Assembly (NCBI GenBank): GCA_963710645.1
Contig: CAVQBD010000002.1
Location: 138,828-202,827, forward strand
Direction of reading: 5' to 3'
Source: an uncultured Holophagae bacterium
GTDB lineage: Bacteria; Acidobacteriota; Thermoanaerobaculia; Thermoanaerobaculales; Sulfomarinibacteraceae
Length of the DNA: 64,000 nt
In this document: one piece after another, positions 13,995 through 60,406 of the stretch
Layout of the letters: every line of letters starts with the position of its first letter
Position numbering within the stretch: the first letter of the stretch is position 1
Notes under the pieces: generated by a model
Database searches by the model: none
What the model was told of the DNA's origin: nothing
Seen by the model: the letters and a program-made list of their open reading frames with translations, nothing else
Made by a program: the position numbers and the translations under genes

Positions 13995-14010
13995 GGCACA
14001 CCGATTGCAT
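13995..14010 (+). promoter_or_regulatory. Sigma-54 (-24/-12) promoter candidate for the small Cys protein and NuoEFG-like/GltD-HdrD operon
   Basis: CGGCACACCGATTGCA. GG at 13996-13997 and GC at 14008-14009 give canonical 12-nt register against TGGCAC-N5-TTGCW. It lies about 25 nt upstream of ATG 14034. Confidence 0.6.
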
Positions 14011-14033
14011 CGCCTCACACCAGGCGGTGGACC

Positions 14034-14276
14034 ATGGCCCAGCCAATTTTCGGGAGGGGTGACTGTCAAAGTTGCCGGTTCTTCATCGACGACCCTCACC
14101 AGTTGGAGAGGGTGCTCATCGGGGTTTTGGCGCTGTCCTCCACCTACGGTTCGACCCGCGGTGACAGCGGCATCTGCACCGTCCATGACACCTTCCAGTA
14201 CCCGTTGACCGACTGCGAACACTACCGTTCCCGAGACCGGTGTTTCGAGGTGGTGGCCGGAGATGTTACGCAATAG
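14034..14276 (+). CDS. Small Cys-rich hypothetical protein (80 aa)
   Basis: ORF 14034..14276 with G/C-rich third codon positions. Motifs CQSCRFF, GICTVHD and DCEHY. It lies directly downstream of a sigma-54-type promoter and overlaps the start of the next gene. Confidence 0.55.
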   Translation: MAQPIFGRGDCQSCRFFIDDPHQLERVLIGVLALSSTYGSTRGDSGICTVHDTFQYPLTDCEHYRSRDRCFEVVAGDVTQ

Positions 14277-16416
14277 TGACGGCGCCGGGTCCGGTCAGAT
14301 GATATCCGGGAGTTGGCAGGTGCAAAGCAAAGGCTCGACCCCCCGACCCGAACATCTGGCGGAGCTGGCGGATGATTTTCTGACCAGGTGTCGAGGCGAC
14401 GGACCAGCCAACTGCGCCGCCCGCTGTCCGCTGCACGTTGATGCTCACGGCTATATGCAGTTGACCCGCCTCGGCAGGTTTCGCGAGGCATTGCAGTTGA
14501 TTCGCGAGGAACTCCCGTTTCCGGGCATCCTGGGCCACGTGTGCGTCCATCCGTGTGAGCTGCACTGCAAGAGGATCGATACCGATTCGGCCGTTCGGAT
14601 CCGTGATGTGAAGCGTTTTCTCGCCCAATGGGAGCCCGGTGACCCGCAGCACGTGACCGATTGCCTCCCGTCGAAGGAACAGACCGTGGCCGTGGTGGGC
14701 TCCGGTCCGGCGGGGCTGATTGCCGGCTATGACCTCCGTCGCCAAGGCTACCGGGTGACGATTTTTGAAAAAGAGGACCGGATCGGCGGCTGTCTGACCC
14801 ACAGGATCCCGGAATGGCGGCTGCCGGCAGATGTGCGGCAGCGGGACCTGTCCATCGTCGATGCGGTGGGACTTGCCGTCGAGACGGGTGTGGAGGTCGG
14901 GAAGGACCTCAGCCTCGGCGAGCTCTGCGCCTCCCACCACGCCGTGCTTCTGGTGGTGGGCTTCGGTGGCGGGCAAATCCTGCTCGATCGGGAATCCTCC
15001 AGCCTTCGCCGGTCGGCACGTCAGACGATAATGGTGAATCCAAACACCGGCATGTCGGACATCGAGGGTGTGTTCGCCGGTGCTGATGCCGTGACCGGGC
15101 CTGGGACGGTGATCCACGCTCTGGCGTGGGGTCGGAGGTTGGCCAGGTCGGCGGAGAAGTTCCTCGACGGCCGAGACCCGGCCGAGGACCAATGGTCCCA
15201 CCGCCCGCCACCCCTGTTGTGGCGCCTCGAGGTGGACGAGGCCGAGCGACGTCGGCGAGAGCGACCGCCGGTGATGCTGCGACCGCCTCCAGAGGAGATG
15301 ACCGAGGCCGAAGCGGTGGCAGAGGGCGAGAGATGTCTCGACTGTGTCTGTGGACTCTGCACGGTTGAGTGCGAATTCCTGGCCAAGTATTGCGATGTGC
15401 CGAGGCAGCTGGCTGCAAAGATCCGGGACGGTCCGGAGCATCACCTCGACATGGTCTATTCCTGTAACCTGTGTGGTCTCTGCCGCCAGGTCTGTCCGGT
15501 GGACCTGGACACAGGTGAGTTGATGCTCGAGGCGAGACGGCGTGCTGTGCGCAGTGGGGTCGCTCCGCTTGATCGTCACCGCAAGGAATTGCGGTTCTTT
15601 CGACTGGGCGTCTCCAAGACCTTCTCGCTGGCAGCTCCGGAGCCGGGCCGCCGCACGGCCAACAGTTTGTTCTTCACCGGTTGCTCGTTGCCGGCCTCCT
15701 CCCCTGAAAACACCCTCCGCCTTTACCAGGAACTGCGACGCCTTTCCCCCGGCATCGGTGTTCTGATGCACTGTTGCGGTGCGCCGGCATTCGCCATCGG
15801 GATGGAGGAGGAAGCTCGCTCCGCCCGGCAAAACGTGCTGGAGATGGCCCAGAGCCTCGGTGCCGACGAGCTGATCGTGGCGTGTCCCGGGTGCCAGAAA
15901 ACCCTTGACCAGCCCGATTTCGGCCTCAAGGTGCGGTCCGCCTGGCAGCTCCTGGCCGAGTCCTGGTCACCTGAGGTGGACTGGAAGGGGCTCGACGTTT
16001 CGGTGCACGATCCGTGCGTGGCCCGTCACGACGCCGCCACCCAAGACGCGGTGCGATTGCTCATCAACGGGACCGGTGCAAGGACCGTCGACTTGGAGGC
16101 CTCGGGGGAGGACACGAGGTGCTGCGGTCTTGGCGGGAGGATTGGCGGCGTGGATCCCCAGCTTTCCCGGGCGGTTGCACAACGGCGGGTGGCCGAGGCC
16201 TCGGATCCGATCGTCACCTACTGCACGAGGTGCCGGGCCGCACTGCAGAGCGGTGGGGGAGCTCCGGTCCACCTCCTGGAACTATTGTTCGCCAATGATC
16301 TGGAGAGGGCCCTGGCCAGAAAACCGCTGGGTGCCATTCGGCGCTATGCCAATCGTTTGTTGGCCAAGAGATCATTGCGCCGTGGCCCGCTCACCGGCCG
16401 GGTGCAGGGCGGATGA
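14263..16416 (+). CDS. GltD/DsrL-like NAD(P)H flavoprotein fused to an HdrD/GlpC-like module (2x[4Fe-4S] and 2 CCG domains)
   Basis: N-terminus matches the glutamate-synthase small-subunit pattern (CAARCPLHVD...FPGILGHVCVHPCELHCKR; dinucleotide fold VAVVGSGPAGL...IFEKEDRIGG). Two ferredoxin motifs follow (CLDCVCGLCTVEC, CNLCGLCRQVCP). Two CCG motifs complete it (HCCGAP...ACPGC and CCGLGG...YCTRC). Confidence 0.75.
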   Translation: MLRNSDGAGSGQMISGSWQVQSKGSTPRPEHLAELADDFLTRCRGDGPANCAARCPLHVDAHGYMQLTRLGRFREALQLIREELPFPGILGHVCVHPCELHCKRIDTDSAVRIRDVKRFLAQWEPGDPQHVTDCLPSKEQTVAVVGSGPAGLIAGYDLRRQGYRVTIFEKEDRIGGCLTHRIPEWRLPADVRQRDLSIVDAVGLAVETGVEVGKDLSLGELCASHHAVLLVVGFGGGQILLDRESSSLRRSARQTIMVNPNTGMSDIEGVFAGADAVTGPGTVIHALAWGRRLARSAEKFLDGRDPAEDQWSHRPPPLLWRLEVDEAERRRRERPPVMLRPPPEEMTEAEAVAEGERCLDCVCGLCTVECEFLAKYCDVPRQLAAKIRDGPEHHLDMVYSCNLCGLCRQVCPVDLDTGELMLEARRRAVRSGVAPLDRHRKELRFFRLGVSKTFSLAAPEPGRRTANSLFFTGCSLPASSPENTLRLYQELRRLSPGIGVLMHCCGAPAFAIGMEEEARSARQNVLEMAQSLGADELIVACPGCQKTLDQPDFGLKVRSAWQLLAESWSPEVDWKGLDVSVHDPCVARHDAATQDAVRLLINGTGARTVDLEASGEDTRCCGLGGRIGGVDPQLSRAVAQRRVAEASDPIVTYCTRCRAALQSGGGAPVHLLELLFANDLERALARKPLGAIRRYANRLLAKRSLRRGPLTGRVQGG

Positions 16417-18944
16417 CGAGCCTGAGAAACGTGCGGGTCACGGTCGATGGAACGCCGGTCGACGTGCCGGTGGGCCGCTCTCTGCTGCAGGTCTTGCGAG
16501 ATCTTCGCGTACGCGTTCCGACCCTCTGTCATGACGACCGACTCACTCCCTACGGAGGATGTCGGCTGTGTGTGGTGGATCGAAGGGACGGTAACCGCGG
16601 TCTAGTGACCGCCTGCTCCACCCCAGTGGAGGAGGGGATGGTCGTGAGGACCCGGACGCCGGAGATCGTGGAGTCCCGGAGGCGGCAGCTGCAGCTGCTT
16701 TTGCTCAACCACCGGCTCGACTGTCCGGTGTGTCAACGCAACGGCGACTGTCGGTTGCAGGACCTGATCTACGAAATCGGCGTGCCGGACGAAGATCTGC
16801 CCTTTGAATCAACCCCGGTACCGGCGGACGACCCCTCGCCGATCATCCTTCGTGATCCTGGAAAGTGCATCGTTTGCGGGCGCTGTGTGCGACTGTGCGA
16901 GGAGGTGCAGGGCGTCGCGGCCATCGGTTTCAAGGGCAGGGGATTGGAGCTGCGGGTGGCGACCTTCGACGGTCGCCCGCTGGACTGTGAGTTCTGCGGC
17001 CAGTGCGTGAACGCGTGCCCGGTTGGAGCCCTCACGACGCGGACCGACGGTTCGGATGTGCCGGCCTGGTTGCGGGAGTCGGTCACCACGACCTGCGGTT
17101 TCTGCAGTTGTGGATGCCAGCTCACCGTGGAGTCAGACGAGGGCCGGCTGCAGCGAGTGACCTCTGCGCCGGGGAGTTCGCCCAACAACGGAAAGCTGTG
17201 TGTCAAGGGGTGGCTCGGGCATGACCTCTTGGCCGACCCCGATCGGTTGACAGAACCGCTGGTCCGCCGGGGTGGTCGGCTCGTTGCTGTTGGTTGGTCC
17301 GAAGCCTTGGCAGCGGCGGTTGCCGGAATCGAAGCCGCCGCGGGTTCGGGGCGGCCCGTGGTGGGTCTTGGAAGTGGCAGGCTGAGTTGTGAGGACGGCT
17401 ATCTGCTCCAGCGGTTCATGCGGGGTGTGCTGTCGTCGCCCCACGTGGCCCTCGCCCCCACCGGTGGTGTGGAAGCGCTGGTGGACGGGCTCGGCCGGGT
17501 TCTGACCCGGGCGGCCTCCACCGGCAGTTTCCAGAGCTTGGCGGAGGCCGATCTCGTGGTGGTTCTGCGTGCGGACCCGGGCCGCACCCATCCTCTGGTC
17601 AAGACGGAGATCGTCCAAGGGGTTCAGCAGCGCGGCCAACGGCTGATTCTGGCTCACGCCCTGTCGGGTGGTCTCGAGCGACACGCCGAAAGTTACGTGC
17701 GGTTGGAGCCGGGGTCGGAGGCCGATCTATTGGGAGGTGTGACCAGGGCGCTGCTCGAAGAACGGCCGGTTCTCGAGCATCGCATCGAGGAGATTCCTGG
17801 AGCGCGGGGATTTGTCGACAGTCTGGCCGGTTACACCGAGGGTTGGGTCTGCAGGCGGACGGGAGTGCCGGTAACTGAGTTTCGCCGGCTCGTACACCTC
17901 CTACTCCAGGCCCGCCGTCCCCAGTTGGTGGTTGTCACGGGTCTCGGAATTCCCGGTGACGAGGCGGCCGTTTCCCGGGCTGCCGTTCAACTGAGTGCTC
18001 TTCTTCCTGGGAATGGGGGCGTGCTGGTGCTCGGCGAAAAGGCCAACGTTCAGGGCCTGGTGGATGTTGGAGTCCACCCCCGGCTGCTTCCCGGACACCG
18101 CCCGGCATCGGATATCTCGGCCCGGGAGGATCTGACGGCCCTCATTGGATGCGATTTTGCGACCGGCGTTGGCTGGACGGCGCGCGAGGCATGTGATGCG
18201 GCGGTGGAAAGGGAGGTGGGCGCTCTGCTGCTTGCGGGTGTGGACCCGGTGCGGAATTTCCCCAGGGAGTATCAGGGTCGTGCCGCGGTGGACGGCGCCG
18301 GATTCGTGATCTGCCTCGACGCCTTTCCCACCGAATCCGCACGGATGGCGGACGTGGTGCTGCCGGTGGCGATCCTCGCCGAGCGAGATGGGAGTACGGT
18401 GGGATTGGACGGGGTCCGGCGGTCGTTGCGGCAAGCGCTCGCGCCACCGGTTCCCTTGCCCGGGGATGGTGATCTGTTGCGCCAGCTGGCGGTTCTGATG
18501 GGGTCCGACCTACCGGCGGGGGGGCGGCTCTCCAGTGAGATGGAGCGGGTGGTGGGATGGCCCTATCCCACCGCAGCTCTCCGGCGCCTGCTGCCGGCAC
18601 CGGAATCGGGAGGCGGCCTCGGCTGGTCGGGCATCCTGCTCGATGGATCGCCTCAGCTCTTTCACTCCGGCTCGGTGACGACCCGTAGCGCGAACCTCAG
18701 GGAGCTTGCTCCGCCTGTGGCCCTGCGTCTCCATCCGGAAGATGCTCTCGAGCTGGACGTGGGAGCCGGAGACGTGATTTCGGTGGCCAGCGGAGGCCGC
18801 GAGCTCCTGCTCCGGGCGAGAGTGGACTCCACGGTCCGCCGAAGCACGGCAGTCGTGCTTTGGGGGGCGGGCCGCCACGGAGCGTCGGAGCTGATGGACA
18901 GCGAATCACAGCCGGTCGCCGTCACCCTCCGGAGGTCCCGGTGA
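16413..18944 (+). CDS. NuoG/FdhA-like Fe-S protein with a molybdopterin-oxidoreductase-like domain that appears to lack a catalytic Cys/Sec
   Basis: ATGA overlap with the upstream gene. 2Fe-2S (CHDDRLTPYGGCRLC), CPVCQRNGDCRLQ, CIVCGRCVRLC, CEFCGQCVNACP and the CGFCSCGC...GKLCVKG cluster. The stretch where FdhA has its active-site C/U-H reads SSPHVALAPTGG, by my eye alignment. Confidence 0.7.
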   Translation: MTSLRNVRVTVDGTPVDVPVGRSLLQVLRDLRVRVPTLCHDDRLTPYGGCRLCVVDRRDGNRGLVTACSTPVEEGMVVRTRTPEIVESRRRQLQLLLLNHRLDCPVCQRNGDCRLQDLIYEIGVPDEDLPFESTPVPADDPSPIILRDPGKCIVCGRCVRLCEEVQGVAAIGFKGRGLELRVATFDGRPLDCEFCGQCVNACPVGALTTRTDGSDVPAWLRESVTTTCGFCSCGCQLTVESDEGRLQRVTSAPGSSPNNGKLCVKGWLGHDLLADPDRLTEPLVRRGGRLVAVGWSEALAAAVAGIEAAAGSGRPVVGLGSGRLSCEDGYLLQRFMRGVLSSPHVALAPTGGVEALVDGLGRVLTRAASTGSFQSLAEADLVVVLRADPGRTHPLVKTEIVQGVQQRGQRLILAHALSGGLERHAESYVRLEPGSEADLLGGVTRALLEERPVLEHRIEEIPGARGFVDSLAGYTEGWVCRRTGVPVTEFRRLVHLLLQARRPQLVVVTGLGIPGDEAAVSRAAVQLSALLPGNGGVLVLGEKANVQGLVDVGVHPRLLPGHRPASDISAREDLTALIGCDFATGVGWTAREACDAAVEREVGALLLAGVDPVRNFPREYQGRAAVDGAGFVICLDAFPTESARMADVVLPVAILAERDGSTVGLDGVRRSLRQALAPPVPLPGDGDLLRQLAVLMGSDLPAGGRLSSEMERVVGWPYPTAALRRLLPAPESGGGLGWSGILLDGSPQLFHSGSVTTRSANLRELAPPVALRLHPEDALELDVGAGDVISVASGGRELLLRARVDSTVRRSTAVVLWGAGRHGASELMDSESQPVAVTLRRSR

Positions 18945-21379
18945 TTGTCCACCCCTCCGGGGTCTCCACTGGCTATTACGGATCGCAGCCATCGGTGCCC
19001 CTGGAACCTGCGGTGGTGGATCTGGTGGACGCCTTCTTGTCCGCCAATCCGGGGGGTCGGGAGAGGTTGATTCCACTGTTGCAGTGCGTTCAGGACGAAG
19101 TCGGCCACCTACCCGTCGAGGCTCAGGAGCTGGTGGCAGATCGTCTGGCCATGTCACCGATCCAGGTCGCAGGAGTGGTCAGCTTCTACGATCTGTTCAC
19201 CCTCACGCCGCGGGCACCATTCGAAATCCGGGTCTGCGCGGGGACCGCCTGCCACGTTCAGGGTGGCGAAAGGGTGCTCGATGCGCTCACCGACGCTCTT
19301 GGAGTGACTGCCGGTGGCATCTCGGCAGACGGGTTGTTCAACCTCGAGCGAGGCCACTGCATCGGTGCCTGCGCCCTGGCCCCAGCGGTGATGGTCAACG
19401 GAGTTGTCCACGGGCGAATGACGGCCGGATCGGTGCGGCGGCTGGTGAGTCGGTTGCGTCACTCGGTCAAGGCTGCGGCGGAGCGGCCCGGTTCCATGGG
19501 TGCCGTCCGGTTGAGCCCTATGGGAGGCCTGTGGCGGAGCGCCCGTTGGCTGCCGACCGATGCATCCGGTGATGAAATCGGTGTGCGCACGATCCAGATC
19601 TGTTCAGGAAGCGGTTGCCTCGCCAACGGAGCTTTGGAGGTGGCGGAAGCCCTCAAGGCCTGTCTCCGCCGGCTGCGACGGGATGGTGGCCCGCGAGGTG
19701 CTTCGGTGGATCGGGTCAGGATAGAACTTGGAATCACTGGCTGTCGTGGCTTCTGCGCCGCCGGACCCCTGGTGAAGATCCCTGAAGTCGGTGTCCTGTA
19801 CTGCGGTGTAGGGGTCGACGACGCCGACGAGATCATCCAGAAGACGGTGTTCCAGGGTCACGTCATTCCGCGGCTGATATTTGGCGGCACAACTGGCGAC
19901 GGAAGGTACCGCAGCCAAGACGATATTCCCTTCTTCTCCGGCCAACAGCGACATGTGCTCGGGCTCTGCGGTGAAATCGACCCCGAGCGTATCGAACAAT
20001 ACGAATCTCAGGGTGGTTACCTGGCACTCGAACGGGTTGTCCGGGAATTCCGGCCGGACCAGGTGATCCAGCGGGTGATGGAATCCGGGTTGGTGGGTCG
20101 AGGCGGTTCCGGATTTCCGACCGGACGGAAGTGGCAGTTGGTCGCCGACGCCCCGGACGAGACCAAGGTCGTCATCTGCAATGGTGACGAAGGCGATCCC
20201 GGGGCGTTTATGGACCGCAGCTTGATGGAGGGCGACCCCCATTCGGTGCTGGAGGGAATGGCCATAGCGGGCTATGCGGTGGGCGCCCACATCGGCTACG
20301 TCTACCTGCGCGCCTCCTACGAGATGGCGGTGAGGAGAATGTTGCACGCCGTCGCGCAGGCACGTGAGCGCGGTTTTATCGGGGACGATGTCATGGCCAG
20401 CGGATACCACTTCGATGTCCGGATCGTGCAAGGTGGCGGCGCTTTCGTGTGCGGCGAGGAAACCGCGCTCATAGCCTCCATCGAGGGGCGACGAGCCATG
20501 CCCAGGACCCGTCCGCCACATCCTGCGACCCGCGGCCTGTGGGGACACCCCACGTTGATCAACAACGTCGAGACTCTGGCCAACATCCCGCAGATCTTGA
20601 TGCCGAGAAACCAACGGGGAGCCGGCCGCGCTACGACCAAGACGTTTGCGCTCACCGGTGCTGTTCGCAACGTCGGGCTGGTGGAGGTCACTCTGGGCAC
20701 CTCCCTGCGGGAGATCGTGTTCGGCATAGGTGGCGGACTGGCCGAGGGGCGAACATTCAAGGCGGCATGGATCGGCGGACCCGGAGGTGGGTGTCTCGGA
20801 GAGCCCCAACTGGACACCCCCATCGACTATGACTCCCTGGAGGAACAGGGAGTGGCCATGGGTTCGGGTGGGTTGGTGGTGGTGGACGACCGTACCTGCT
20901 CCGTTCGGCTGGCGCGTTTCATGCTCGCGTTTTGCGTCGAAGAATCGTGTGGCAAGTGTTCGCCCTGCCGAATCGGAACGCGGGTTCTGCTCGGTCTGCT
21001 GACTCGCGTCAGCGAGGGTGAGGGGCGGGCGGGAGACCTGGAGAGAATCGAACGCCTCGGAGAACACGTGCACAGGACATCTCTCTGTGGACTGGGACAG
21101 TCGGCCCCAATGCCGGTTCTGACTGCGCTCCGCCATTTCCGTTCGGAGTTCGAATCCCACCTCAACAGCCGCAGTTGCCCCGCCGGGGAGTGCTACCGGT
21201 TGTTGGATCTGCGTATCGATGCCGAATTGTGCGAGGGCTGTGGAGACTGCGTCGTGGTCTGTCCGGAGCAGGCGATCGTGGGAGAACCCGGTTCGAGCTA
21301 CGCCATCGACCTCGACCGATGCAACCGCTGCGGGCTATGTATCCACTGCTGCCCGTACGATGCTATCGAAACAGTGTAA
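18941..21379 (+). CDS. NuoE-like/NuoF-like fusion flavoprotein with an extra 2Fe-2S domain and a C-terminal 2x[4Fe-4S] ferredoxin domain (HydB/HydC- or Bfu-type)
   Basis: GTG 18941 overlaps the upstream TGA. NuoE motif (VCAGTACHVQG...GHCIGACALAP) and a second thioredoxin-like 2Fe-2S (CSGSGCLANG...GCRGFCAAGP). NuoF motifs GRGGSGFPTGRKW, CNGDEGDPGAFMDR and SCGKCSPCR...LCGLG. Ferredoxin motifs CEGCGDCVVVCP and CNRCGLCIHCCP. Confidence 0.8.
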   Translation: MIVHPSGVSTGYYGSQPSVPLEPAVVDLVDAFLSANPGGRERLIPLLQCVQDEVGHLPVEAQELVADRLAMSPIQVAGVVSFYDLFTLTPRAPFEIRVCAGTACHVQGGERVLDALTDALGVTAGGISADGLFNLERGHCIGACALAPAVMVNGVVHGRMTAGSVRRLVSRLRHSVKAAAERPGSMGAVRLSPMGGLWRSARWLPTDASGDEIGVRTIQICSGSGCLANGALEVAEALKACLRRLRRDGGPRGASVDRVRIELGITGCRGFCAAGPLVKIPEVGVLYCGVGVDDADEIIQKTVFQGHVIPRLIFGGTTGDGRYRSQDDIPFFSGQQRHVLGLCGEIDPERIEQYESQGGYLALERVVREFRPDQVIQRVMESGLVGRGGSGFPTGRKWQLVADAPDETKVVICNGDEGDPGAFMDRSLMEGDPHSVLEGMAIAGYAVGAHIGYVYLRASYEMAVRRMLHAVAQARERGFIGDDVMASGYHFDVRIVQGGGAFVCGEETALIASIEGRRAMPRTRPPHPATRGLWGHPTLINNVETLANIPQILMPRNQRGAGRATTKTFALTGAVRNVGLVEVTLGTSLREIVFGIGGGLAEGRTFKAAWIGGPGGGCLGEPQLDTPIDYDSLEEQGVAMGSGGLVVVDDRTCSVRLARFMLAFCVEESCGKCSPCRIGTRVLLGLLTRVSEGEGRAGDLERIERLGEHVHRTSLCGLGQSAPMPVLTALRHFRSEFESHLNSRSCPAGECYRLLDLRIDAELCEGCGDCVVVCPEQAIVGEPGSSYAIDLDRCNRCGLCIHCCPYDAIETV

Positions 21380-23588: not shown

Positions 23589-23595
23589 GGTTCAA

Positions 23596-23782
23596 GTTGA
23601 AAGTCGAAAGTCGAAAGTCCCACCGGTCCAGGAGGCCAACAACTCGGGACTCGGGACTCGGGACTGAGGACTCGGGACTCGTCCCCCGCCCTCCCTCCCG
23701 GGACGACAACAGGGCGCGATGGGCGGGCGTACCACTCCGGGCACCTTCAAGTTGAAAGTTGAACGTTAAACGTTGAACGTTC
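23596..23782. repeat. Composite of heptamer arrays: GTYGAAA x3 (23596-23616), ACTCGGG x6 (23642-23683), AAMGTTG x5 (23748-23782)
   Basis: Each array is followed by CCC.CCCTCCCTCCC-GGACGACAACAGGGCGCG-ATGGGCGGGCGT. This makes a roughly 150-nt super-unit present twice in tandem (about 23590-23745 and 23746-23835). Confidence 0.85.
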
Positions 23783-24081: not shown

Positions 24082-24183
24082 CATCCAGGATCCAGCATCG
24101 AACATCCGGCATCCGGCATCCGGGTGGGCGGTGGATCTTGAATCTTGAATCTTGGGTCTTGCATCTTGGGTCTTGCATCTGGT
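24082..24183. repeat. Heptamer arrays, CATCCGG x6 (24082-24123) and ATCTTGR/GTCTTGC x7 (24135-24183)
   Basis: The arrays are separated by GGGTGGGCGGTGG. The second array belongs to the same unit family as 5090-5142. Confidence 0.9.
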
Positions 24184-24441
24184 CGGGTGGGTGGGGGCCC
24201 GGCGTTACGCGCTGGGAACGGCAAGAACGCCGGTGTCACAGCCAAATCCCAGGGTTCCGGGCGCCCTTTTGCGAAAGGCACAAGCGACAGCCGGCCCCAA
24301 GCCTTTCACCAACCGCGATTTCCGACGGTGGAGAGGGTTGGTGGGTGATCCGGGGAGACTCGAAATCATACCGTTTTCCTAAGGAATAGGAATTGCTCAA
24401 TTGTCCGGGGATGAGGTGTGCCTGTGGGCGATGGATCGAAT

Positions 24442-24471: not shown

Positions 24472-24529
24472 ATCGACTATCTCAATATTCCAGAAGAGAA
24501 TTCGGTATGATGGGCGAGGAGTGCTACTG

Positions 24530-27066: not shown

Positions 27067-27070
27067 GTCA

Positions 27071-27126
27071 GTGACTCGTGAATAGTAAATAGTGAATAGT
27101 GAATAGTGAATAGTGAGTCGAGAATA
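27071..27126. repeat. Heptamer tandem array, GTGAATA family, 8 units
   Basis: It starts 5 nt after the dsrK TAG stop and belongs to the same unit family as 4875-4916, 22 kb away. Confidence 0.95.
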
Positions 27127-27154
27127 GTCGGAAGCTGACAGCATCAAATGATCA

Positions 27155-46771: not shown

Positions 46772-48505
<1,734 letters not shown>

Positions 48506-48510
48506 ATTGA

Positions 48511-49613: not shown

Positions 49614-49668
49614 TACAGTGCGGACACCGGAACCGGCGGCCGGTGACGGCGGGTCGGAATGGAGGCGG

Positions 49669-50103
49669 ATGATGCGCGTCGAGAGCGTGTTGTTGGTTGA
49701 TGACGAAGTGGAGTTTGTTCAGACACTTGCAGAACGCATGCAGGCACGGGGACTGGCCGTCGAGTACGTCACCAACGGCCACGATGCCATCGAATCGGCG
49801 AGATCCAAGACCTACGATGCGGTGGTCCTCGATTTGGCCATGCCTGGAATGAACGGTCTCGAGACCCTCAAGATCCTCCTCCGAGATCATCCCGGCCTCC
49901 AGATCATGCTTCTCACCGGGCAGGCCACCGTTGGCGATGCCGTCGAGGCAACAAAGATCGGGGCGGTGGACGTCTTCGAAAAACCCACCGACATCGAGAC
50001 CCTGGTGGAGAAGATCCGCGAAGCCAGGAAAGCGCGACTCGCCCTGGAGGAGCAACACGCCCTCGATGAGATCGACAAGATCATGTCCACCAAGGGTTGG
50101 TGA
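49669..50103 (+). CDS. CheY-like response regulator with a short C-terminal helical tail
   Basis: ATG 49669 or 49672 follows GGAGG. VLLVDDEVEF...AVVLDLAMPGMNG...LLTGQA...VFEKPTDIETL. Confidence 0.85.
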   Translation: MMRVESVLLVDDEVEFVQTLAERMQARGLAVEYVTNGHDAIESARSKTYDAVVLDLAMPGMNGLETLKILLRDHPGLQIMLLTGQATVGDAVEATKIGAVDVFEKPTDIETLVEKIREARKARLALEEQHALDEIDKIMSTKGW

Positions 50104-53937: not shown

Positions 53938-54635
53938 CCGATGTGCGTGGCTCGAAGGTTGTAGTCCGGAAAATCCAGAGGCTCGGGACGACCGCCCTGG
54001 AGGTATGGACAAACGATGTCGTCGATGCTGAGCGATTTGGTGAGATGGCCCTCCGCGCGCGGCTCGAGAACGCCGCCCTGAAGGTCCTCGATCCGGAGGC
54101 CTTCGATGGGGTGAGCAGAGGACTGGAGTCGATGGTCGCTGCGCAGGCCACGTGGTGTGCTGCGACCGAAGCGGCCATCGTCTCGGCACTTTCCGCCGAT
54201 GGCGTGCAGTATGTGGCGATCCAGCGCAGGGCCAAGCACGTCGCGGGGGTGTGGCGAAAAATGAAAGAGAAACACCTTGCCCTTGAAGACGTGCAGGATT
54301 TGTTCGCCTTTCGGATCATCGTTCCAGGGCAGGATGAATGCTATCTGGCTCTTGCCACCGTCCATCGTTTGTTCGACCCGGAGCCGTTTCGATTCAAGGA
54401 CTACATAGCAAATCCCAAGGCGAACGGCTACCAGAGCCTCCACACCAGTGTCCGTGATCGGGGCGGTTTTGCATTCGAGATCCAAATCCGAACCGTCGAC
54501 ATGCACCGTGCGGCTGAGGAGGGTGCTGCCGCCCATTGGCGTTACCGAGCCGGCAAATCCGTGCGCAACAGGGCATCGGCGAGGTCTGCGGGTCTGGGTG
54601 GTCTTGGTGCTCTGATCAGGCGTCGGCGTGGGTGA
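53934..54635 (+). CDS. RelA/SpoT-domain small alarmone synthetase-like protein
   Basis: Synthetase-domain motifs RAKHVAGVWRKMKEK, DLFAFRIIV, YIANPKANGYQSLHTSV, FEIQIRTVDMH and AAHWRYR. GTG 53934 overlaps the upstream TGA. Confidence 0.8.
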   Translation: MTDVRGSKVVVRKIQRLGTTALEVWTNDVVDAERFGEMALRARLENAALKVLDPEAFDGVSRGLESMVAAQATWCAATEAAIVSALSADGVQYVAIQRRAKHVAGVWRKMKEKHLALEDVQDLFAFRIIVPGQDECYLALATVHRLFDPEPFRFKDYIANPKANGYQSLHTSVRDRGGFAFEIQIRTVDMHRAAEEGAAAHWRYRAGKSVRNRASARSAGLGGLGALIRRRRG

Positions 54636-56049
54636 CGGGCGTCAGGGACGGGGTGGCTGGTAGGGTTACGGTGAAGGTCGTGCCCTTGCCCTGCTCCGTG
54701 GTGAAGGTGACGTCCCCGCCATGTTCTTCGGCGACCTTCTGAACCACCAGAAGACCGATGCCGGTGCCCTCGCTGCCCTTGGTCGAGAAAAAGTCCTCGA
54801 AGACCCGGCTGTTCATCTCGTCGGGAATCCCGGCGCCATCGTCCTCCACCTCGAGGATCATGGAGCCCTTGATGTCGGTGGTGCAGCGAAGGGTGATGGT
54901 GTGGTGTTCCTTCGCGTCTGACGGATCGAAACGACAGGCGTCGATGGCATTGGCGACCAGGTTGGTGAGCATGTTGTGGAGTCCGCCGGGATCGAAGGTG
55001 CCATAGACCGGCGGGTCACAGAGTTCGGTTTCCAGGGTGATGCCCTCTTCGGCCATGCGGTCGGCAAAGAGATCGCGGACCTCCATCAGAATGGTGTTCG
55101 GGCAGACCCCGTCCTTGAAATCCGGGGTCCGATCCTTGGAACAATAGAGCAGATCCATGACGATCCTCGAGACCCGGTGGACGTTTCGTTCGACCATTTC
55201 CCACCCTTCAGCAATGGTCTCGCGATCATCGGTTTCGAGCCCTGTGTTGACGACGAAAATGCCGCCCTCGAGCCCCATCAAAATATTCTTGATTCGATGT
55301 GCCATACCGGCTACGGCACGTCCCATGAGGGCCAACTGGCGTTGCAGCGCCTTGACCTCGGTGACGTCGGTGAACACCTCCATGACGGCGCTGATCTCGC
55401 CATCGTCGTCCACGATGGGCATTGTGTGCACCACGGCATTGACCCGTCTGTGATCCCGCGTCACGAGAATCTCTTCGTCGGAGTGGATCAGGCCGTCGGC
55501 AAAGGTCAGGTCCACCACGCAGTTTGGACACTTGCTCGTGCGTTTCTTGCACACCTCGTAACAGAAAGAACGGTTGGTCGCCCCGAACTCCTCGCGGTAC
55601 ATGGCGTTGGCCTCGAGGATTCGATGGTCCCGGTCGATGACGCAGATAAAGCATGGGACGGAGGTGAAGAGGCGTTCGAAACCACGTCGAGTTTGATTGA
55701 GTTCACGTTTGAGATCGTTGAAGGGTGGCGCGTCGACGACTCTCGGTCGCCGGGTGAAGACCCACACGCCGAGGCTTGCCAGGCAGAAGAAGAGGGTCGC
55801 CGCGATGACGATGGGAGACAGGAATCGAACTCCACCCGCCACCGCAACGCACAGGATCGAGATGACCGAAAAATACACCGCGACGATGCGCCGCCGCTGA
55901 ATGATCGGGTCGTTAACCTTCCTGGTGACCTTCGGGCCTGCCGGCGGGACGATGTCGTTGGGTGGAGTTCTGGTGTGGTGATGGGCCGGGGCACCATTGC
56001 GCTGATCTTGAGAGGGTGTTGTCCCGTCAGGTATGTCCATCGACGCCAC
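54616..56049 (-). CDS. Membrane sensor histidine kinase with a Cys-rich PAS domain
   Basis: Two TM segments, a PAS with SFCYEVCKKRTSKCPNCVV, H-box AGMAHRIKNIL, N-box LTNLVANAIDA, and G-boxes DDGAGIP and GTGIGLLVV. Confidence 0.85.
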   Translation of the reverse strand: MASMDIPDGTTPSQDQRNGAPAHHHTRTPPNDIVPPAGPKVTRKVNDPIIQRRRIVAVYFSVISILCVAVAGGVRFLSPIVIAATLFFCLASLGVWVFTRRPRVVDAPPFNDLKRELNQTRRGFERLFTSVPCFICVIDRDHRILEANAMYREEFGATNRSFCYEVCKKRTSKCPNCVVDLTFADGLIHSDEEILVTRDHRRVNAVVHTMPIVDDDGEISAVMEVFTDVTEVKALQRQLALMGRAVAGMAHRIKNILMGLEGGIFVVNTGLETDDRETIAEGWEMVERNVHRVSRIVMDLLYCSKDRTPDFKDGVCPNTILMEVRDLFADRMAEEGITLETELCDPPVYGTFDPGGLHNMLTNLVANAIDACRFDPSDAKEHHTITLRCTTDIKGSMILEVEDDGAGIPDEMNSRVFEDFFSTKGSEGTGIGLLVVQKVAEEHGGDVTFTTEQGKGTTFTVTLPATPSLTPVTHADA

Positions 56050-56361: not shown

Positions 56362-57720
56362 ATGGATAACAGTGATTTCGATCCGGCACAGATCATTCTT
56401 GACAGCGTCGCCGACGGGGTCTTCACCGTCGATCGCCAGTGGCGCATCAGCTCGTTCAACCGGGCAGCGGAAGAGATTACAGGCGTGCCCCGGGAAGAAG
56501 CTCTGGGACAACGCTGCTGCGATGTGTTTCGGGCCAGCATCTGTGAATCCGGTTGCGCCCTCAGACACACCCTCGAAACCGGGGAAAATGTCGTCAACAA
56601 AAAGGTTTTCATTGTCGATACCGACGGTACCAAACTCCCGGTGAGCGTTTCGACGGCGATCCTCAGGGACGCCGATGGGCAACCCAAGGGTGGTGTCGAG
56701 ACCTTTCGCGATCTCAGCCACGTCGAGCAGCTGCGCAAGGAACTCGAGGGCCGTTTCTCGCTCGGCGACATCATTGGCCGCAGTCGTCCCATGAGGGACC
56801 TTTTCGAAGTGCTTCCGGCGATCGCGGCCAGCGAGAGCACCGTCGTCGTCCACGGCGCCAGCGGGACAGGCAAGGAGCTCTTCGCCCGTGCGATCCACCA
56901 GCTGTCACCGAGACGGGACAAACGGTTTGTTGCCATCAACTGTGGTGCTCTTCCGGACACTCTGCTTGAAAACGAACTCTTCGGCCACGTGGCCGGCGCC
57001 TTCACCGACGCCCGTCGTGACAGGCCGGGTCGTTTCGCCCATGCGGAAGGGGGCACCATCTTCTTGGATGAGATCGGGGATATTTCCCAGGCGATGCAGG
57101 TTCGTCTGCTGCGGGTTCTCCAGGAGCACGTCTACGAGCCTCTCGGCTCGGTGGAGCCGGTGACAGCCGACGTCCGGGTCATCGTCGCCACTCACCGCGA
57201 TCTCGCAAGCCTCGTTGAGGATGGAGTTTTCAGGGAAGACCTCTACTATCGCATCAACGTGATGAAGCTGGAGCTGCCGGCATTGAAAGAGCGCCGGGAG
57301 GACATTCCGCTGCTGGTGGATCATTTTGTCCAGCGATTCAACCGGCTTCAGGACAAGGACGTCGTCGGAGTGTCGGACGAGGTTCTCAGCCTGCTCATGA
57401 CATATTCGTTCCCAGGCAACGCCCGGGAGTTGGAAAACGTCATCGAGCACGCCTTCGTGCTCTGCAATGAAGGCTGCATCGAACTCAGACACCTGCCACC
57501 TGAAATCAGTCAGGGATCCGAAGTTCCTCCGGTGGAATCCCGGGGGGGAATGACTCTCCGTGAGATGGAAGCCCTGCAAATATCGCTTGCACTCCACCGC
57601 CATGGCGGAAACCGGAAGGCGGCGGCCGATGAGCTTGGGATCCACCCGAGCACCCTCTTCCGGAAACTCAAGGATCTGGAGATCGAGCCGCCGGAGCGCG
57701 ACGGTCGGAATAGTCAGTAG
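56362..57720 (+). CDS. Sigma-54-dependent transcriptional activator with an N-terminal Cys-rich PAS domain
   Basis: ATG 56362 is residue 463 of listed ORF 54976..57720; the upstream 462 codons are the antisense shadow of the kinase gene. PAS with GQRCCDVFRASICESGCAL, Walker A GASGTGKE, GAFTDA loop and a C-terminal Fis-type HTH. Confidence 0.9.
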   Translation: MDNSDFDPAQIILDSVADGVFTVDRQWRISSFNRAAEEITGVPREEALGQRCCDVFRASICESGCALRHTLETGENVVNKKVFIVDTDGTKLPVSVSTAILRDADGQPKGGVETFRDLSHVEQLRKELEGRFSLGDIIGRSRPMRDLFEVLPAIAASESTVVVHGASGTGKELFARAIHQLSPRRDKRFVAINCGALPDTLLENELFGHVAGAFTDARRDRPGRFAHAEGGTIFLDEIGDISQAMQVRLLRVLQEHVYEPLGSVEPVTADVRVIVATHRDLASLVEDGVFREDLYYRINVMKLELPALKERREDIPLLVDHFVQRFNRLQDKDVVGVSDEVLSLLMTYSFPGNARELENVIEHAFVLCNEGCIELRHLPPEISQGSEVPPVESRGGMTLREMEALQISLALHRHGGNRKAAADELGIHPSTLFRKLKDLEIEPPERDGRNSQ

Positions 57721-57889: not shown

Positions 57890-58291
57890 ATGGCGGGAAG
57901 GACGATGCGATACAGTGAGGCATTCAAGCAGCAGGTAGTGGACGAGCTCGAGGCGGGGCGATTTGGGAGTCCACATGAGGCATCACAGGCCTACGGTGTT
58001 GATTCGGGGTCGGTGAAGCGTTGGGCTAGACAGTACGGCAAGGGGCACTTGCTGCGGAAGGTGGTACGAGTGGAGAAGCAAGACGAGCCTGGGGAGATCA
58101 AGCGTTTGAAGGAACGGGTGCGAGGCTTGGAAGCTGCGTTGGCGGATTCGGTGATGGACCAGGCGTTGGATCAGGCGTTTTTCGAGATTCTGTGCGAGCG
58201 GATGGGCATCGACGCGAGAGAGTTTAAAAAAAAGCACGCTGGTCAGGCGTCCACCGGGCGGGCAAGAAACTCCAAGGACGACGCGGAGTAA
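57890..58291 (+). CDS. IS3-family transposase OrfA (HTH)
   Basis: MRYSEAFKQQVVDELEAG...VKRWARQY plus a leucine-zipper-like region, typical of IS3 OrfA. Confidence 0.85.
   Translation: MAGRTMRYSEAFKQQVVDELEAGRFGSPHEASQAYGVDSGSVKRWARQYGKGHLLRKVVRVEKQDEPGEIKRLKERVRGLEAALADSVMDQALDQAFFEILCERMGIDAREFKKKHAGQASTGRARNSKDDAE
58228..58234 (+). other. Programmed -1 ribosomal frameshift heptamer A AAA AAG in the IS3 element
   Basis: TTTAAAAAAAAG at 58223-58234. In the orfA frame the codons are AAA AAA AAG. The -1 frame downstream reads ARWSGVHRAGKKLQGRRGVSIERLCCKVGMTRQNYY with no stop codon before orfB. Confidence 0.7.
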
Positions 58292-58302
58292 GCATCGAGA
58301 GG

Positions 58303-59109
58303 TTGTGCTGCAAGGTGGGCATGACCCGGCAGAACTACTACAAGCAGAGGCGGCGGCGAAGACGGAGAGAAGTCGACGAGAGTCTGATCATCGCTCTGGT
58401 CAGGCGGGAGCGACAGCAGCAGCCGCGGCTTGGTTGTAGGAAGCTCCATCGGCATTTGCGTCAGCAGTTTCGAGACGCCGGTATCCAGGTCGGTAGAGAC
58501 CGGATGTTTGAGGTTCTTCGTCATCACGGGATGCTGGTCAGACCGTTGCCGAAGAAACCCCGCACTACGTTTTCGGGGCACTCTTTGCCGGTGTATAGGA
58601 ATCTCATCTCTGAGCTTGAGGCCACGGCTCCAAACCAGATCTGGGTCAGCGACGTGACCTACATCCGGACGTGGGGGGGGTTTGAGTACCTCACTCTGAT
58701 CATGGACCTGCACTCCCACAAGATCGTCGGCTATCACTGTGGAGAAAGCCTCGACACCAAGACTTCCATGAAAGCGTTGGATCAGGCGATTGCGGATCTG
58801 CCAGACGACAGGTATCCAATTCACCATTCAGATCGAGGAAGCCAGTACTGTAGCCACAAGTATGTCGAACGCCTGAATGGTCGCTACTTGCCGGTGAGCA
58901 TGACCGAGTTGAATCACTGTGCCGAAAACTCAACTGCAGAGAGACTCAACGGCATCCTCAAACAGGAGTATGGCCTCGGAAGAACTTTCCTCAGCCGGCA
59001 GCAGGTACGACGCGCTGTCGATGAAGCCGTCTGGCTCTACAACCACCGCCGACCCCACATGACCCTCGATTACCAATACCCTGCCAAGGTCCATGAACTG
59101 GCCGCCTGA
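58303..59109 (+). CDS. IS3-family transposase OrfB (rve/DDE integrase core)
   Basis: IWVSDVTYI (D), HHSDRGSQY (D) and AENSTAERLNGILKQE (E). The -1 frame is open from the slippery site at 58228 through to this ORF. Confidence 0.9.
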   Translation: MCCKVGMTRQNYYKQRRRRRRREVDESLIIALVRRERQQQPRLGCRKLHRHLRQQFRDAGIQVGRDRMFEVLRHHGMLVRPLPKKPRTTFSGHSLPVYRNLISELEATAPNQIWVSDVTYIRTWGGFEYLTLIMDLHSHKIVGYHCGESLDTKTSMKALDQAIADLPDDRYPIHHSDRGSQYCSHKYVERLNGRYLPVSMTELNHCAENSTAERLNGILKQEYGLGRTFLSRQQVRRAVDEAVWLYNHRRPHMTLDYQYPAKVHELAA

Positions 59110-59603
59110 CAAGGCTGGCTCCTTCACACAACTTGATCACTTCTCCACAGCCTGATGAACCACCGCGCGGCCCACCCTCCCGACTGCGGAGTTGCGGAAA
59201 GCTGGCCCCCTCCCCACCTCCCTCCACCTTCCCACAGCCTCCGCAGCCACGACGACGAATAGTGACAACTTTTCGCCAGGACTTGACCAGCGTTTCATCT
59301 TGGCATCCTGAGCGAGGCCCACCGGGCCGAGTCGAAGGATCTGGGTGGGTGGGGAGCCGATGCGTTCTTGCCCCCACCCAGACCCTTCGTCGCTCCGCTC
59401 CTCAGGATGACATCTGTCTTCCTCATTCTCGAGTTCAATCGAGGCTGGAACTGCCTACTGCCTACTGGCATCAATCGCGAAATGCGACGGTAGCCTCCGT
59501 TGCCCGGGCAGCGTTCTGCGAGGCAGCCGTGGCGCGTCTCGTTCGTTCGTTCGTAACTATATTTTTTTGAACATCTTAAGACCGAGAGTGCAGCAGAAAG
59601 AGT

Positions 59604-59619
59604 TGGCAGGATCATTGCT
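59604..59619 (+). promoter_or_regulatory. Sigma-54-like -24/-12 element abutting the NifX-like start codon
   Basis: TGGCAGGATCATTGCT has correct GG-N10-GC spacing. However, the predicted transcription start would fall at or within 2 nt of ATG 59631. Confidence 0.35.
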
Positions 59620-59630
59620 ATAGCTGGAGC

Positions 59631-60095
59631 ATGCGACTCGCCGTACCAGCTTGGGAAGGCCGAGTGTCGCCGCTCTTCGACGTGGCGAAGTGGCTTATGG
59701 TCATTGACGTCATCGGCGGTGAGGCGACCTTCACAAAGGTCTATCCAATCGGCGGCCCCAACCGCAAGCGGGTTGTCTCTGAGCTCGGCATCGATGTCCT
59801 GATCTGCGGCGCCATTTCCCGTGAACTCGAGGACGGATTGGTGGCCAGCGGGGTCGAGGTGGTCGCCGAGATCAGGGGCCGGATCGAGGACGTCGTGCGA
59901 GCGCATACCCAGGGCAGCCTGGTTCAGCCGCGGTTCTTGATGCCGGGATGCCATGGTCGGCGTCGCCGTGCCCGGACCCGGGCGAGCCGCATGGAGACGG
60001 TGGACGCGTCCGAGCGGCGATCCGCCGAAAGGGCTGATGGCGCTTCCGGAGGTTGGCCTGACGGTGGGGGACCGGAGGGTTGGATGGTCCACTAG
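59631..60095 (+). CDS. NifX/NifB-like (dinitrogenase Fe-Mo cofactor-binding fold) small protein with an Arg/Gly-rich tail
   Basis: MRLAVPAWEGRVSPLFDVAKWLMVIDV...GIDVLICGAISRELEDGLVASGVEVV is the typical pattern of this family. The C-terminal roughly 50 aa are low complexity. Confidence 0.65.
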   Translation: MRLAVPAWEGRVSPLFDVAKWLMVIDVIGGEATFTKVYPIGGPNRKRVVSELGIDVLICGAISRELEDGLVASGVEVVAEIRGRIEDVVRAHTQGSLVQPRFLMPGCHGRRRRARTRASRMETVDASERRSAERADGASGGWPDGGGPEGWMVH

Positions 60096-60250
60096 CCTGG
60101 TCGAGACCGAAAACCCGTGCGGTTCGCGGGACGAGGTAGATGGGTCGAAACGTGGCAAGGCCGTTGTCGTTACTGACTCGTGACACTTTTCACGAGTTCC
60201 CGCCCATGGTCGAGCAATCGGCTCGGAGAGCACCATTTTACATGTCTCAA

Positions 60251-60296
60251 CCTATTGCAAATAGGAATCTTAGAAAGCACGTTACGGTCTCGTAAC
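60251..60296 (+). promoter_or_regulatory. Two small palindromes, candidate activator-binding (UAS) sites upstream of the 60391 promoter
   Basis: CCTATTGCAAATAGG (60251-60265) and GTTACGGTCTCGTAAC (60281-60296) lie 95-140 nt upstream of the -24 element. Confidence 0.3.
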
Positions 60297-60390
60297 TGAA
60301 ACCCGGGTTGACCGCCGGGCAACTGTGGGTGGCGCGAGGCAATCCTCAGTTGTTGCAATGGCTTGCGTCACCGGACGCCGGCTGTCTCTC

Positions 60391-60406
60391 TGGCACAGCG
60401 GTTGCA
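60391..60406 (+). promoter_or_regulatory. Sigma-54 (-24/-12) promoter candidate for yeiH-like and dsrAB
   Basis: TGGCACAGCGGTTGCA (GG 60392-60393, GC 60404-60405). It lies about 47 nt upstream of ATG 60453. Confidence 0.7.

Follow-up and report, generated by a model that had tools for sequence, protein, structure and literature searches.

Putative conserved sigma-54 promoters ahead of dsrAB and electron-transfer operons in an uncultured Acidobacteriota bacterium

The stretch of DNA analyzed here, called the window throughout, comprises 64,000 nt of contig CAVQBD010000002.1 of an uncultured Holophagae bacterium; 9.9% of it is intergenic, and its homologues assign it to Acidobacteriota, with metagenome-assembled genomes (MAGs) labelled Ca. 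Sulfomarinibacteraceae, Holophagae or Thermoanaerobaculia. It carries dsrAB and other sulfur and redox operons preceded by sequences that resemble sigma-54 promoters. The original prediction named three such 16-mers with the GG-N10-GC register, and all three were found on the plus strand. The coordinate given for one of them, 60391, was exact; 13995 and 28018 were each off by 1 nt, as they pointed at the GG of elements that begin at 13994 and 28017. The count was too low, since there are at least five promoters of this kind, the extra ones starting at 59604 and 24382. The five candidates are listed below.

13994-14009, plus strand: site 1, sigma-54 promoter CGGCACACCGATTGCA, GG at 13995-96 and GC at 14007-08, predicted transcription start site (TSS) about 14020.
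24382-24397, plus strand: site 5, variant sigma-54 promoter AGGAATAGGAATTGCT, position weight matrix (PWM) score 12.0, GG-N10-GC register intact, predicted TSS about 24408.
28017-28032, plus strand: site 2, sigma-54 promoter TGGCACGCCGGTTGCT, predicted TSS about 28043.
59604-59619, plus strand: site 4, sigma-54 promoter TGGCAGGATCATTGCT, highest PWM score of the window.
60391-60406, plus strand: site 3, sigma-54 promoter TGGCACAGCGGTTGCA, predicted TSS about 60417.

The elements end 24, 123, 59, 11 and 46 nt before the ATG (sites 1, 5, 2, 4 and 3, respectively), and the gaps of 24, 59 and 46 nt at sites 1, 2 and 3 agree with the 25 to 60 nt announced for the first start codons. Gene families were assigned by Pfam and NCBIfam profile searches. 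Site 1 does lie upstream of the GltD-HdrD/NuoEFG-like operon; the first gene, however, is a small Cys-rich open reading frame (ORF). What had been called a propeller and hmc-like operon behind site 2 is a Tmc/DsrMK/Hmc-type hybrid rather than simply hmc-like, and its propeller protein is TmcD. Site 3 was said to precede a yeiH-like gene and dsrAB, and the searches bear this out with a YeiH-family transporter, a dsrA equivalog and a partial dsrB; an exact look-up of the transporter's sequence returned no entry. Site 4 precedes a gene of the Nitro_FeMo-Co family PF02579, which we take to be the family of the Desulfovibrio orange protein; we call it orp-like.

14034-14276, plus strand: 80-aa Cys-rich ORF, first gene after site 1, overlapping the start of gltD-hdrD.
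14263-21379, plus strand: operon 1 (Pfam; gene calls and synteny in relatives).
14263-16416, plus strand: GltD-like/HdrD(CCG) fusion (Pfam).
16413-18944, plus strand: NuoG/molybdopterin-like (Pfam).
18941-21379, plus strand: NuoE+NuoF fusion (Pfam).
24521-27066, plus strand: orf24521 and the DsrK/HdrD-like gene dsrK2 (25429-27066) (Pfam, NCBIfam).
28092-35121, plus strand: operon 2 (Pfam, NCBIfam, synteny).
28092-29354, plus strand: TmcD (NCBIfam equivalog NF045725, 494 bits against a cutoff of 440).
29370-30017, plus strand: NarI/DsrM-like (Pfam).
30060-31379, plus strand: DsrK/TmcB-like (Pfam).
31383-32903, plus strand: multihaem cytochrome c3-type protein of 506 aa (Pfam).
about 32900-33937, plus strand: Fer4_11 protein, HmcB-like (Pfam).
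33934-35121, plus strand: NrfD-like, HmcC-like (Pfam).
59631-60095, plus strand: orp-like gene, Nitro_FeMo-Co family PF02579 (Pfam).
60453-64000, plus strand: operon 3 (Pfam, NCBIfam).
60453-62105, plus strand: YeiH-family transporter of 550 aa (Pfam).
62174-63391, plus strand: dsrA (NCBIfam equivalog, 576 bits against 393).
63405 to the window end, plus strand: dsrB, partial.

The 80-aa Cys-rich protein, which contains MAQPIFGRGDCQSCRFF...SSTYGSTRGDSGIC, matched no NCBIfam family. Its ORF is also called as a gene on the source contig and has homologues in two of the compared loci (these carry L numbers), L161 (3736-3975) and L162. A further homologue in L010 (about 950-1180) immediately precedes yeiH-dsrAB, a position that hints at a dsr-linked role for the protein. 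No family match was obtained for orf24521, and dsrK2 scored 321 bits with the NCBIfam DsrK model, under its cutoff of 400. The orf24521-dsrK2 pair is found directly 5' of yeiH-dsrAB in other Acidobacteriota; in the window, dsrK2 is followed by a strong terminator (27237-27258), which sets it apart from the tmcD promoter.

We then compared the elements with the background of the window. The bare GG-N10-GC pattern is uninformative, with 923 matches against 982 expected. The fuller pattern TGGCAC-N5-TTGCW with at most one mismatch has six matches against 1.69 expected, a number reached by none of 100 shuffles, and sites 1 to 4 deviate from it by no more than one position. PWM scoring, which had been suggested as a check and was run within the window, placed the three predicted sites above the intragenic matches. 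The four best scores on either strand are those at 59604, 28017, 60391 and 13994, all intergenic, on the plus strand and directly 5' of plus-strand genes. Two intragenic matches, at 3528-3543 in an NtrC-type gene and at 26310-26325 in dsrK2, were dismissed as chance, the latter being devoid of the -12 GC. A search with the Escherichia coli consensus, which may not fit Acidobacteria, found no sigma-70-like plus-strand promoter in the three predicted promoter regions.

The weightier evidence came from relatives. The comparison sets consisted of 80 species-representative genomes with a YeiH homologue for site 3 (loci of 13.6 kb), 80 metagenomic tmcD loci for site 2, and eight loci, L161 to L168, with GltD-HdrD identity down to 54% for site 1. 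Pairwise identity at the promoters was calculated from 25, 24 and 8 sequences for sites 3, 2 and 1, respectively. At the fixed -24/-12 positions it amounted to 0.99, 0.92 and 0.94, as opposed to 0.32, 0.33 and 0.33 in the flanks, and the 5-nt spacers were 0.51-0.62 identical at the three sites.

Site 3 occurs as TGGCAY-N5-TTGCA in about 24 Acidobacteriota loci, 42-53 nt 5' of yeiH, with a variable spacer and unalignable flanks, and it is usually the best or second-best PWM match of its locus. In four loci (L018, L023, L025 and L060) the promoter is located between yeiH and dsrA, directly before dsrA, arguing that dsrAB is the conserved target. Site 3 is missing at the yeiH-dsrA loci of Desulfobacterota (Syntrophales) and at the yeiH loci of Gemmatimonadota in the YeiH comparison set. 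Site 2 lies 32-77 nt before tmcD in nearly every locus whose TmcD is at least 63% identical, where it reads TGGCAY-N5-TTGC in 20 loci and is weaker in L081, L097 and L101 (L103 has no upstream sequence); it is almost always the top PWM match of the tmcD locus and is mostly gone below about 60% TmcD identity. Site 1 takes the form CGGCAY-N5-TTGC[AT] and is the top PWM match in all eight comparator loci. Site 5 is found as [AT]GG[AG]A[TC]-N5-TTGC[TG] in L083, L084, L087, L088, L091, L102, L002 and L007, with diverged flanks, and the arrangement at site 4 is kept in L001, L056, L062 and L138. At the sequence level, this pattern of conservation is the footprint expected of functional sigma-54 promoters. 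We regard the comparative evidence as decisive over the counts, the putative promoters being orthologously placed while their flanks are randomised. The core of the original prediction, that sigma-54 promoters head the sulfur/redox operons, holds and gains strength from the retention of this layout in dozens of related species.

Site 4 has a geometry of its own. Its -12 GC stands 12-13 nt before the ATG, which places the predicted start at about 59630, essentially at the A of the AUG. The predicted transcript is (nearly) leaderless, and the distance of 11-17 nt between promoter and ATG is kept in five genomes; a leaderless mRNA made from a sigma-54 promoter would be unusual.

Near-leaderless orp-like promoters: window 59604-59633; L001 5248-5281; L056 3327-3359; L062 5176-5208; L138 about 530-500, minus strand.

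Two classes of palindromes accompany the promoters. Class A, GTTAC-N6-GTAAC with at most one mismatch, occurs four times in the window against 0.21 expected, as follows (without strand).

14265-14280: class A GTTACGCAATAGTGAC, 1 mismatch, on the gltD-hdrD start codon, about +271 from the site-1 -24 box.
24204-24219: class A GTTACGCGCTGGGAAC, 1 mismatch, 178 nt upstream of site 5.
60169-60184: distal class A of the dsrAB promoter GTTACTGACTCGTGAC, 1 mismatch.
60281-60296: proximal class A GTTACGGTCTCGTAAC, perfect, 110 nt before the site-3 -24 box.

In an alignment of dsr upstream regions, class A was an invariant palindrome, conserved in all sequences about 110 nt before the -24 box, and in many dsr loci it is repeated about 112 nt further 5'; no other conserved block was present between -60 and -250. 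Palindromes and RpoN boxes were also scanned in all 1.5 Mb of sequence used for the comparisons. There, 30 of 34 exact class A palindromes have a sigma-54 site 80-240 nt downstream, as opposed to 2% of random positions, and the distance to the promoter has a sharp mode at 109-111 nt. In other Acidobacteriota, the same class A and sigma-54 module is found 5' of orf24521-dsrK2 homologues and of dsrK/dsrM-like pairs, and in the clade of the window (L083, L087, L088 and L102) a class A-like palindrome is found at -176 to -179 from site 5. In L003, L009 and L012, class A sites directly follow the end of a histidine-kinase gene, a weak hint of a two-component input to class A.

Four promoters of orf24521 homologues (L014 3060, L015 3042, L023 2008 and L025 3024) read TGGCAC-N5-TTTCA; this variant, in which the -12 GC is changed to TC, is kept in four genomes and has a class A-like palindrome (1 mismatch) about 90 nt upstream. 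Between enhancer and promoter of site 3, we also observed a semi-conserved AAGTCA...CTTTG about 25-55 nt upstream of the -24 box (about 60335-60365 in the window, where it is weak). It matches the consensus of integration host factor (IHF) only partially; the IHF sites of the Desulfovibrio vulgaris orp promoters are located between enhancer and promoter (PMC3897727).

At site 1, the class A palindrome is downstream of the promoter, and it is so in all eight comparators (+211 to +282). The start of gltD-hdrD reads ATG-TTA-CGn-nnn-nGT-GAC, in which TTA, a rare codon, is retained in DNA of 63-69% G+C and the residue encoded by nGT varies, arguing for constraint on the DNA rather than on the protein. 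The DNA upstream of site 1 consists of heptamer repeats or the end of a DsbA-like gene. Class B-like matches near site 1 in L163 and L164 were rejected as by-products of (ATTCGCA)n repeats.

Class B consists of tandem TTGCA-N3-TGCAA palindromes, found at sites 2 and 4 of the window (without strand).

27886-27898 (-131) and 27919-27931 (-98): class B pair at site 2, GAGCAAACTGCGA and TTGCAACTTGCGA.
59475-59487 (about -130) and 59509-59521 (about -96): class B-like pair at site 4, TCGCGAAATGCGA and CAGCGTTCTGCGA.

The two copies are 33 bp apart and fall at -99 +/-3 and -132 +/-3 in 23 of 24 tmcD loci; 44 of 59 matches in these loci are concentrated in 3% of the sequence. Class B also precedes the orp-like gene of relatives at -130 to -132, as TTGCAATTTGCGA in L056, TTGCAGTTTGCGA in L062 and GTGCAAAATGCAC in L001. 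An attempt to transfer the motif to distant tmcD loci failed, other palindromes such as GCAACATGTTGC being present there. Taken together, sites 2 to 5 have a candidate enhancer 80-250 bp upstream, and site 1 has just the palindrome at +271. The existence of two classes of enhancer palindromes implies at least two activators.

The window encodes two intact candidate activators of the enhancer-binding protein (EBP) type and a degenerate one.

3476-4864, plus strand: NtrC-type response-regulator EBP, REC + AAA+ with GAFTGA + HTH_8.
5353-6633, plus strand: degenerate OrpR-like paralogue, PAS (C-x8-C-x3-C) + remnant central domain + HTH_8.
54616-56049, minus strand: PAS histidine kinase, divergent from the PAS-EBP gene.
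56362-57720, plus strand: OrpR-type PAS EBP, PAS (C52/D54/C61/C65), AAA+ (GASGTGKE, GAFTDA, IFLDE), HTH_8.

As predicted, the NtrC-type regulator has intact AAA+ motifs, including GAFTGA, and the activator-like protein (span 5353-6633) has lost its ATPase motifs, Walker A, GAFTGA and Walker B all being gone. The latter can be aligned over its full length with the PAS-EBP (24% identity, E = 3e-14) and has a similar HTH. The PAS-type activator was also recognized correctly; its supposed cognate kinase is not a classical partner, because the PAS-EBP has no receiver domain. The divergent pairing of the two genes is nevertheless kept in L001, L006, L008, L011, L056, L062 and L064. C52, D54, C61 and C65 of the PAS-EBP have the same numbering as in OrpR of D. 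vulgaris; all eight close orthologues share these residues, as do most distant relatives. GAFTDA is found in the same eight orthologues and in distant EBPs encoded beside tmcD, and it is listed among the functional variants, for DVU2106, that is, OrpR (PMC4641369, Table 1). No model for OrpR exists in NCBIfam, and all EBP equivalogs stayed under their cutoffs. By architecture, motifs, residue numbering and its orp-like neighbour, we class the protein as an OrpR-type single-component EBP. We infer that it would carry a [4Fe-4S] cluster on C52/C61/C65 and be active only when reduced.

The PF02579 gene behind its conserved sigma-54 site lies directly 3' of the PAS-EBP gene, with an IS3 insertion between them in the window. 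The EBP and orp-like genes are conserved as a unit, which in L138 is found beside tmcD and not dsrAB, and OrpR-type EBPs flank tmcD in many distant lineages. The IS3-family insertion sequence element (HTH_Tnp_1 ORF and rve integrase ORF, 57890-59109) sits between the EBP gene and the enhancer and promoter of the orp-like gene. It is absent from relatives, no terminal inverted repeats were found for it, and the enhancer-promoter module appears intact. In twelve loci (L107, L111, L112, L113, L118, L121, L122, L125, L127, L136, L147 and L149), OrpR-type EBPs with the Cys triad and mostly GAFTDA adjoin tmcD. These lineages do not look acidobacterial, and some have TGGCC-type sigma-54 sites and palindromes like GCAACATGTTGC; the link between the OrpR family and Tmc may be widespread.

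From these comparisons, we consider with a probability of roughly 0.88 that the elements are genuine enhancer-dependent sigma-54 promoters, which together place dissimilatory sulfur metabolism under a conserved layer of control in this clade of Acidobacteriota. On each promoter, sigma-54 holoenzyme would be held in a closed complex and then be remodelled by an AAA+ activator, which would occupy a palindrome about 95-240 bp away and reach the promoter by DNA looping. The class A sub-regulon would comprise yeiH-dsrAB and orf24521-dsrK2, and probably also the small-ORF/GltD-HdrD/NuoEFG-like operon. The class B sub-regulon would comprise the tmcD electron-transfer operon and the orange-protein-like gene. 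What the sequences show directly is the promoter and enhancer motifs, their conservation and fixed geometry, and the domains and motifs of the activators; in vivo dependence on sigma-54, the assignment of activators to sites and the redox signal are what we infer from this arrangement.

Class B sites are the most likely targets of the OrpR-type EBP. They stand before the orp-like gene, which forms a unit with the gene for this EBP (beside tmcD in L138), OrpR-type EBPs flank tmcD in distant lineages, and the D. vulgaris site GGGCGCATTTTGCGCCC also has a GCA-N3-TGC core (PMC8359166), to which the class A half-sites, GTTAC, are unrelated; all four points favour this assignment. The NtrC-type regulator, the sole other intact EBP within the window, is the candidate for class A.

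Several observations count against these proposals. The PWM was built from a textbook consensus, which makes absolute scores approximate, and the enrichment within the window is modest, as four matches reach 14 bits or more against 0.81 expected and the shuffle maximum is also four. The -24 box of site 5, AGGAAT, is weak. For site 1, the comparators have no conserved upstream palindrome, the sole one being downstream and overlapping the coding sequence. An RpoN-box regular expression had no match in the 1.5 Mb of compared sequence. Regarding the activators, the D. vulgaris OrpR site differs in sequence from class B, and the gene for the OrpR-type EBP lies immediately 5' of the class A dsrAB promoter in L006, L008, L011 and L064, which speaks against confining this EBP to class B.

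The last observation leads to a different assignment, in which the OrpR-type EBP binds class A and switches on yeiH-dsrAB directly, perhaps acting at class B too. Besides adjoining the class A and sigma-54 module in those four loci, the EBP gene is separated from it by the orp-like gene alone in the window, L001, L056 and L062. EBP genes usually adjoin their targets (PMC4641369, PMC8359166), and the recognition helix of the HTH is invariant across the EBP orthologues. Against this, the palindromes of class A (GTTAC, 11-bp centre spacing) and class B (TTGCA, 8-bp) are too unlike for one HTH dimer, and OrpR-family sites elsewhere have xxGCA-type half-sites (PMC8359166). Moreover, the orp-like gene travelling with the EBP is preceded by class B and not class A, and more distant Acidobacteriota have class A before dsrAB and no EBP within 6 kb. 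We therefore view this alternative as possible and rather doubtful. If the EBP did bind both classes, one Fe-S redox sensor would gate sulfite reductase together with its electron-transfer partners.

In another reading, class A would be the operator of a conventional repressor or sigma-70-type regulator and would merely accompany sigma-54 promoters, with the true enhancers located elsewhere, which would suit the downstream palindrome of site 1 better, as its position on the start codon fits a roadblock or a translational or operator role; a terminator-like fold was also flagged on the minus strand at 60281-60296. This we judge improbable, given that class A keeps a distance of 109-111 nt from the -24 box even in highly diverged sequences, that tandem copies lie about 112 nt apart and that no other conserved block is present from -60 to -250. 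The geometry, furthermore, matches that of EBP sites determined experimentally, at -88 and -131 in the D. vulgaris orp promoters (PMC3897727) and at -101 in the Desulfovibrio alaskensis lpxC promoter, which has a CGGCAC -24 box (PMC4045070).

Finally, the matches could be chance or sites of another factor, with the operons on unrecognized sigma-70-type promoters and the EBPs acting on unrelated targets, as the modest window-only enrichment, the two intragenic near-matches (3528 and 26310) and the possible deviation of acidobacterial sigma-70 promoters from the E. coli consensus used might suggest, but this is very improbable, because the invariant positions in three independent orthologous sets are exactly those that define sigma-54 promoters (TGGCAC and TTGC; GG and GC 10 nt apart), the palindromes stand at a fixed helical distance from the promoters and the whole module is relocated to directly before dsrA in other lineages.

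Two further features of the window lie outside these modules. The region between operons 2 and 3 (35292-50103) is a dense cluster of signalling and sulfur-transport genes, encoding five stand-alone receiver proteins, two histidine kinases, a TauE/SafE exporter, a 1201-aa SulP protein with four STAS domains, a ClC channel with CBS/TrkA-C and two cytidylate-kinase-like proteins. Period-7 tandem arrays also occur at no fewer than 14 separate places in the window, always in intergenic DNA and with repeat units unrelated to one another, and relatives have heptamer arrays of different units at the same intergenic places. They are reminiscent of the short tandemly repeated repetitive (STRR) heptamers of cyanobacteria.

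Period-7 arrays, part 1: 4882-4917, 5090-5142, 6656-6686, 8212-8231, 8301-8324, 13957-13987.
Period-7 arrays, part 2: 23594-23781, 24082-24180, 27070-27128, 27209-27233, 27818-27843.

Unless its activator is at work, a sigma-54 promoter shows no basal activity. Strictly signal-gated expression of dsrAB, the dsrK-like gene and tmc would follow from this property, and sulfur respiration is probably an on-demand, signal-gated programme in this genome. More speculatively, the dsr and electron-transfer modules might be silent by default in a design common to the phylum, in which OrpR-type [4Fe-4S] and phosphorelay NtrC-type switches turn them on and the ATPase-dead paralogue (5353-6633) perhaps serves as an anti-activator at the same sites, a scheme we advance tentatively and hold to be unlikely as a whole. 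If it were true, it would be the redox switch that decides when facultatively anaerobic Acidobacteriota respire sulfur compounds.

Marine sediments and peat harbour abundant dsrAB-bearing Acidobacteriota, and it is still being asked when and why these bacteria use their dsr genes (PMC8528874). Regulation is not a topic in the description of Ca. Sulfomarinibacter, a 2025 cross-phylum survey of sigma-54 mentions neither Acidobacteria nor dsr, and the literature searched, whose coverage was partial, contained no prior report linking sigma-54 with dsrAB or Acidobacteria. The statement that dsrAB is not usually sigma-54-dependent in model organisms agrees with the sigma-54 regulome of D. vulgaris, which includes no dsr or tmc genes and just two energy-metabolism operons, flx-hdr and DVU3143-3145 (PMC4641369). 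Since dsr and tmc are outside that regulome, the arrangement described here would represent a lineage-specific rewiring of a core energy pathway. Concrete candidate sensors can be named, namely the OrpR-type Fe-S redox sensor, the NtrC-type response regulator and two kinases. With the DNA sites defined, the conditions of dsr expression in Acidobacteriota become directly testable, and the two palindromes can serve as a simple genomic signature by which further members of the regulon are predicted in MAGs.

The mechanism would be that of textbook sigma-54/EBP systems, and what appears to be new is the conserved wiring to dsrAB. NtrC-dependent glnAp2 promoters combine a TGGCAC-N5-TTGCA core with tandem dyad sites about 100-150 bp upstream, at integral helical turns. 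The window has the same core, tandem dyad enhancers and a gene for a GAFTGA response-regulator EBP. In contrast with that system, the targets here are sulfur and electron-transfer genes rather than nitrogen assimilation, and the palindromes are unrelated to TGCACC-N5-GGTGCA.

Operon 1 is functionally analogous to flxABCD-hdrABC (DVU2399-2405) of D. vulgaris, which is activated by DVU2394 in the sigma-54 regulome (PMC4641369, after Rajeev et al. 2011); both would combine sigma-54/EBP control with an NADH-linked enzyme of the heterodisulfide-reductase type, whereas subunit families and phylum differ, and dsrAB, dsrMKJOP and tmc are outside the sigma-54 regulome there. Operon 2 has TmcD, a NarI-type cytochrome b, an HdrD/DsrK-type CCG protein and a multihaem cytochrome c3-type protein in common with the Desulfovibrio Tmc/Hmc complexes, and HmcB-like Fer4_11 and HmcC-like NrfD proteins are also present. 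Unlike them, it is a hybrid with tmcD as first gene and does not form the four-gene tmcABCD set with a small type II cytochrome c3 (TmcA), having the 506-aa multihaem protein in its place. We found no report of sigma-54-dependent Tmc or Hmc in Desulfovibrio.

A further close parallel is OrpR (DVU2106) of D. vulgaris Hildenborough, a single-component PAS-EBP that is active when reduced, needs IHF and activates just the sigma-54 orp operons (PMC8359166, PMC3897727); its PAS domain has C52/C61/C65 plus D/E54 (PMC8359166), and its AAA+ motif is GAFTDA (PMC4641369). Both proteins are PAS-AAA+-HTH_8 activators devoid of a receiver, with GAFTDA, Cys 52/61/65 and an acidic residue 54. Both are encoded beside a sigma-54 promoter of an orange-protein-family (PF02579) gene with a palindromic enhancer about 90-130 bp upstream that has a GCA-N3-TGC core, and AAGTCA...CTTTG in many of the lineages compared here stands at the position of the D. 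vulgaris IHF sites. The OrpR 17-bp palindrome GGGCGYRTTTTGCGCCC, single in D. vulgaris, is absent here, where tandem TTGCA-N3-TGCAA shares just that core with it. There is also one orp-like gene instead of two divergent operons, and no MinD/Mrp-type partner in the window. In addition, the same enhancer class here also heads the tmcD respiratory operon, and the gene for the activator is embedded in the dsrAB locus.

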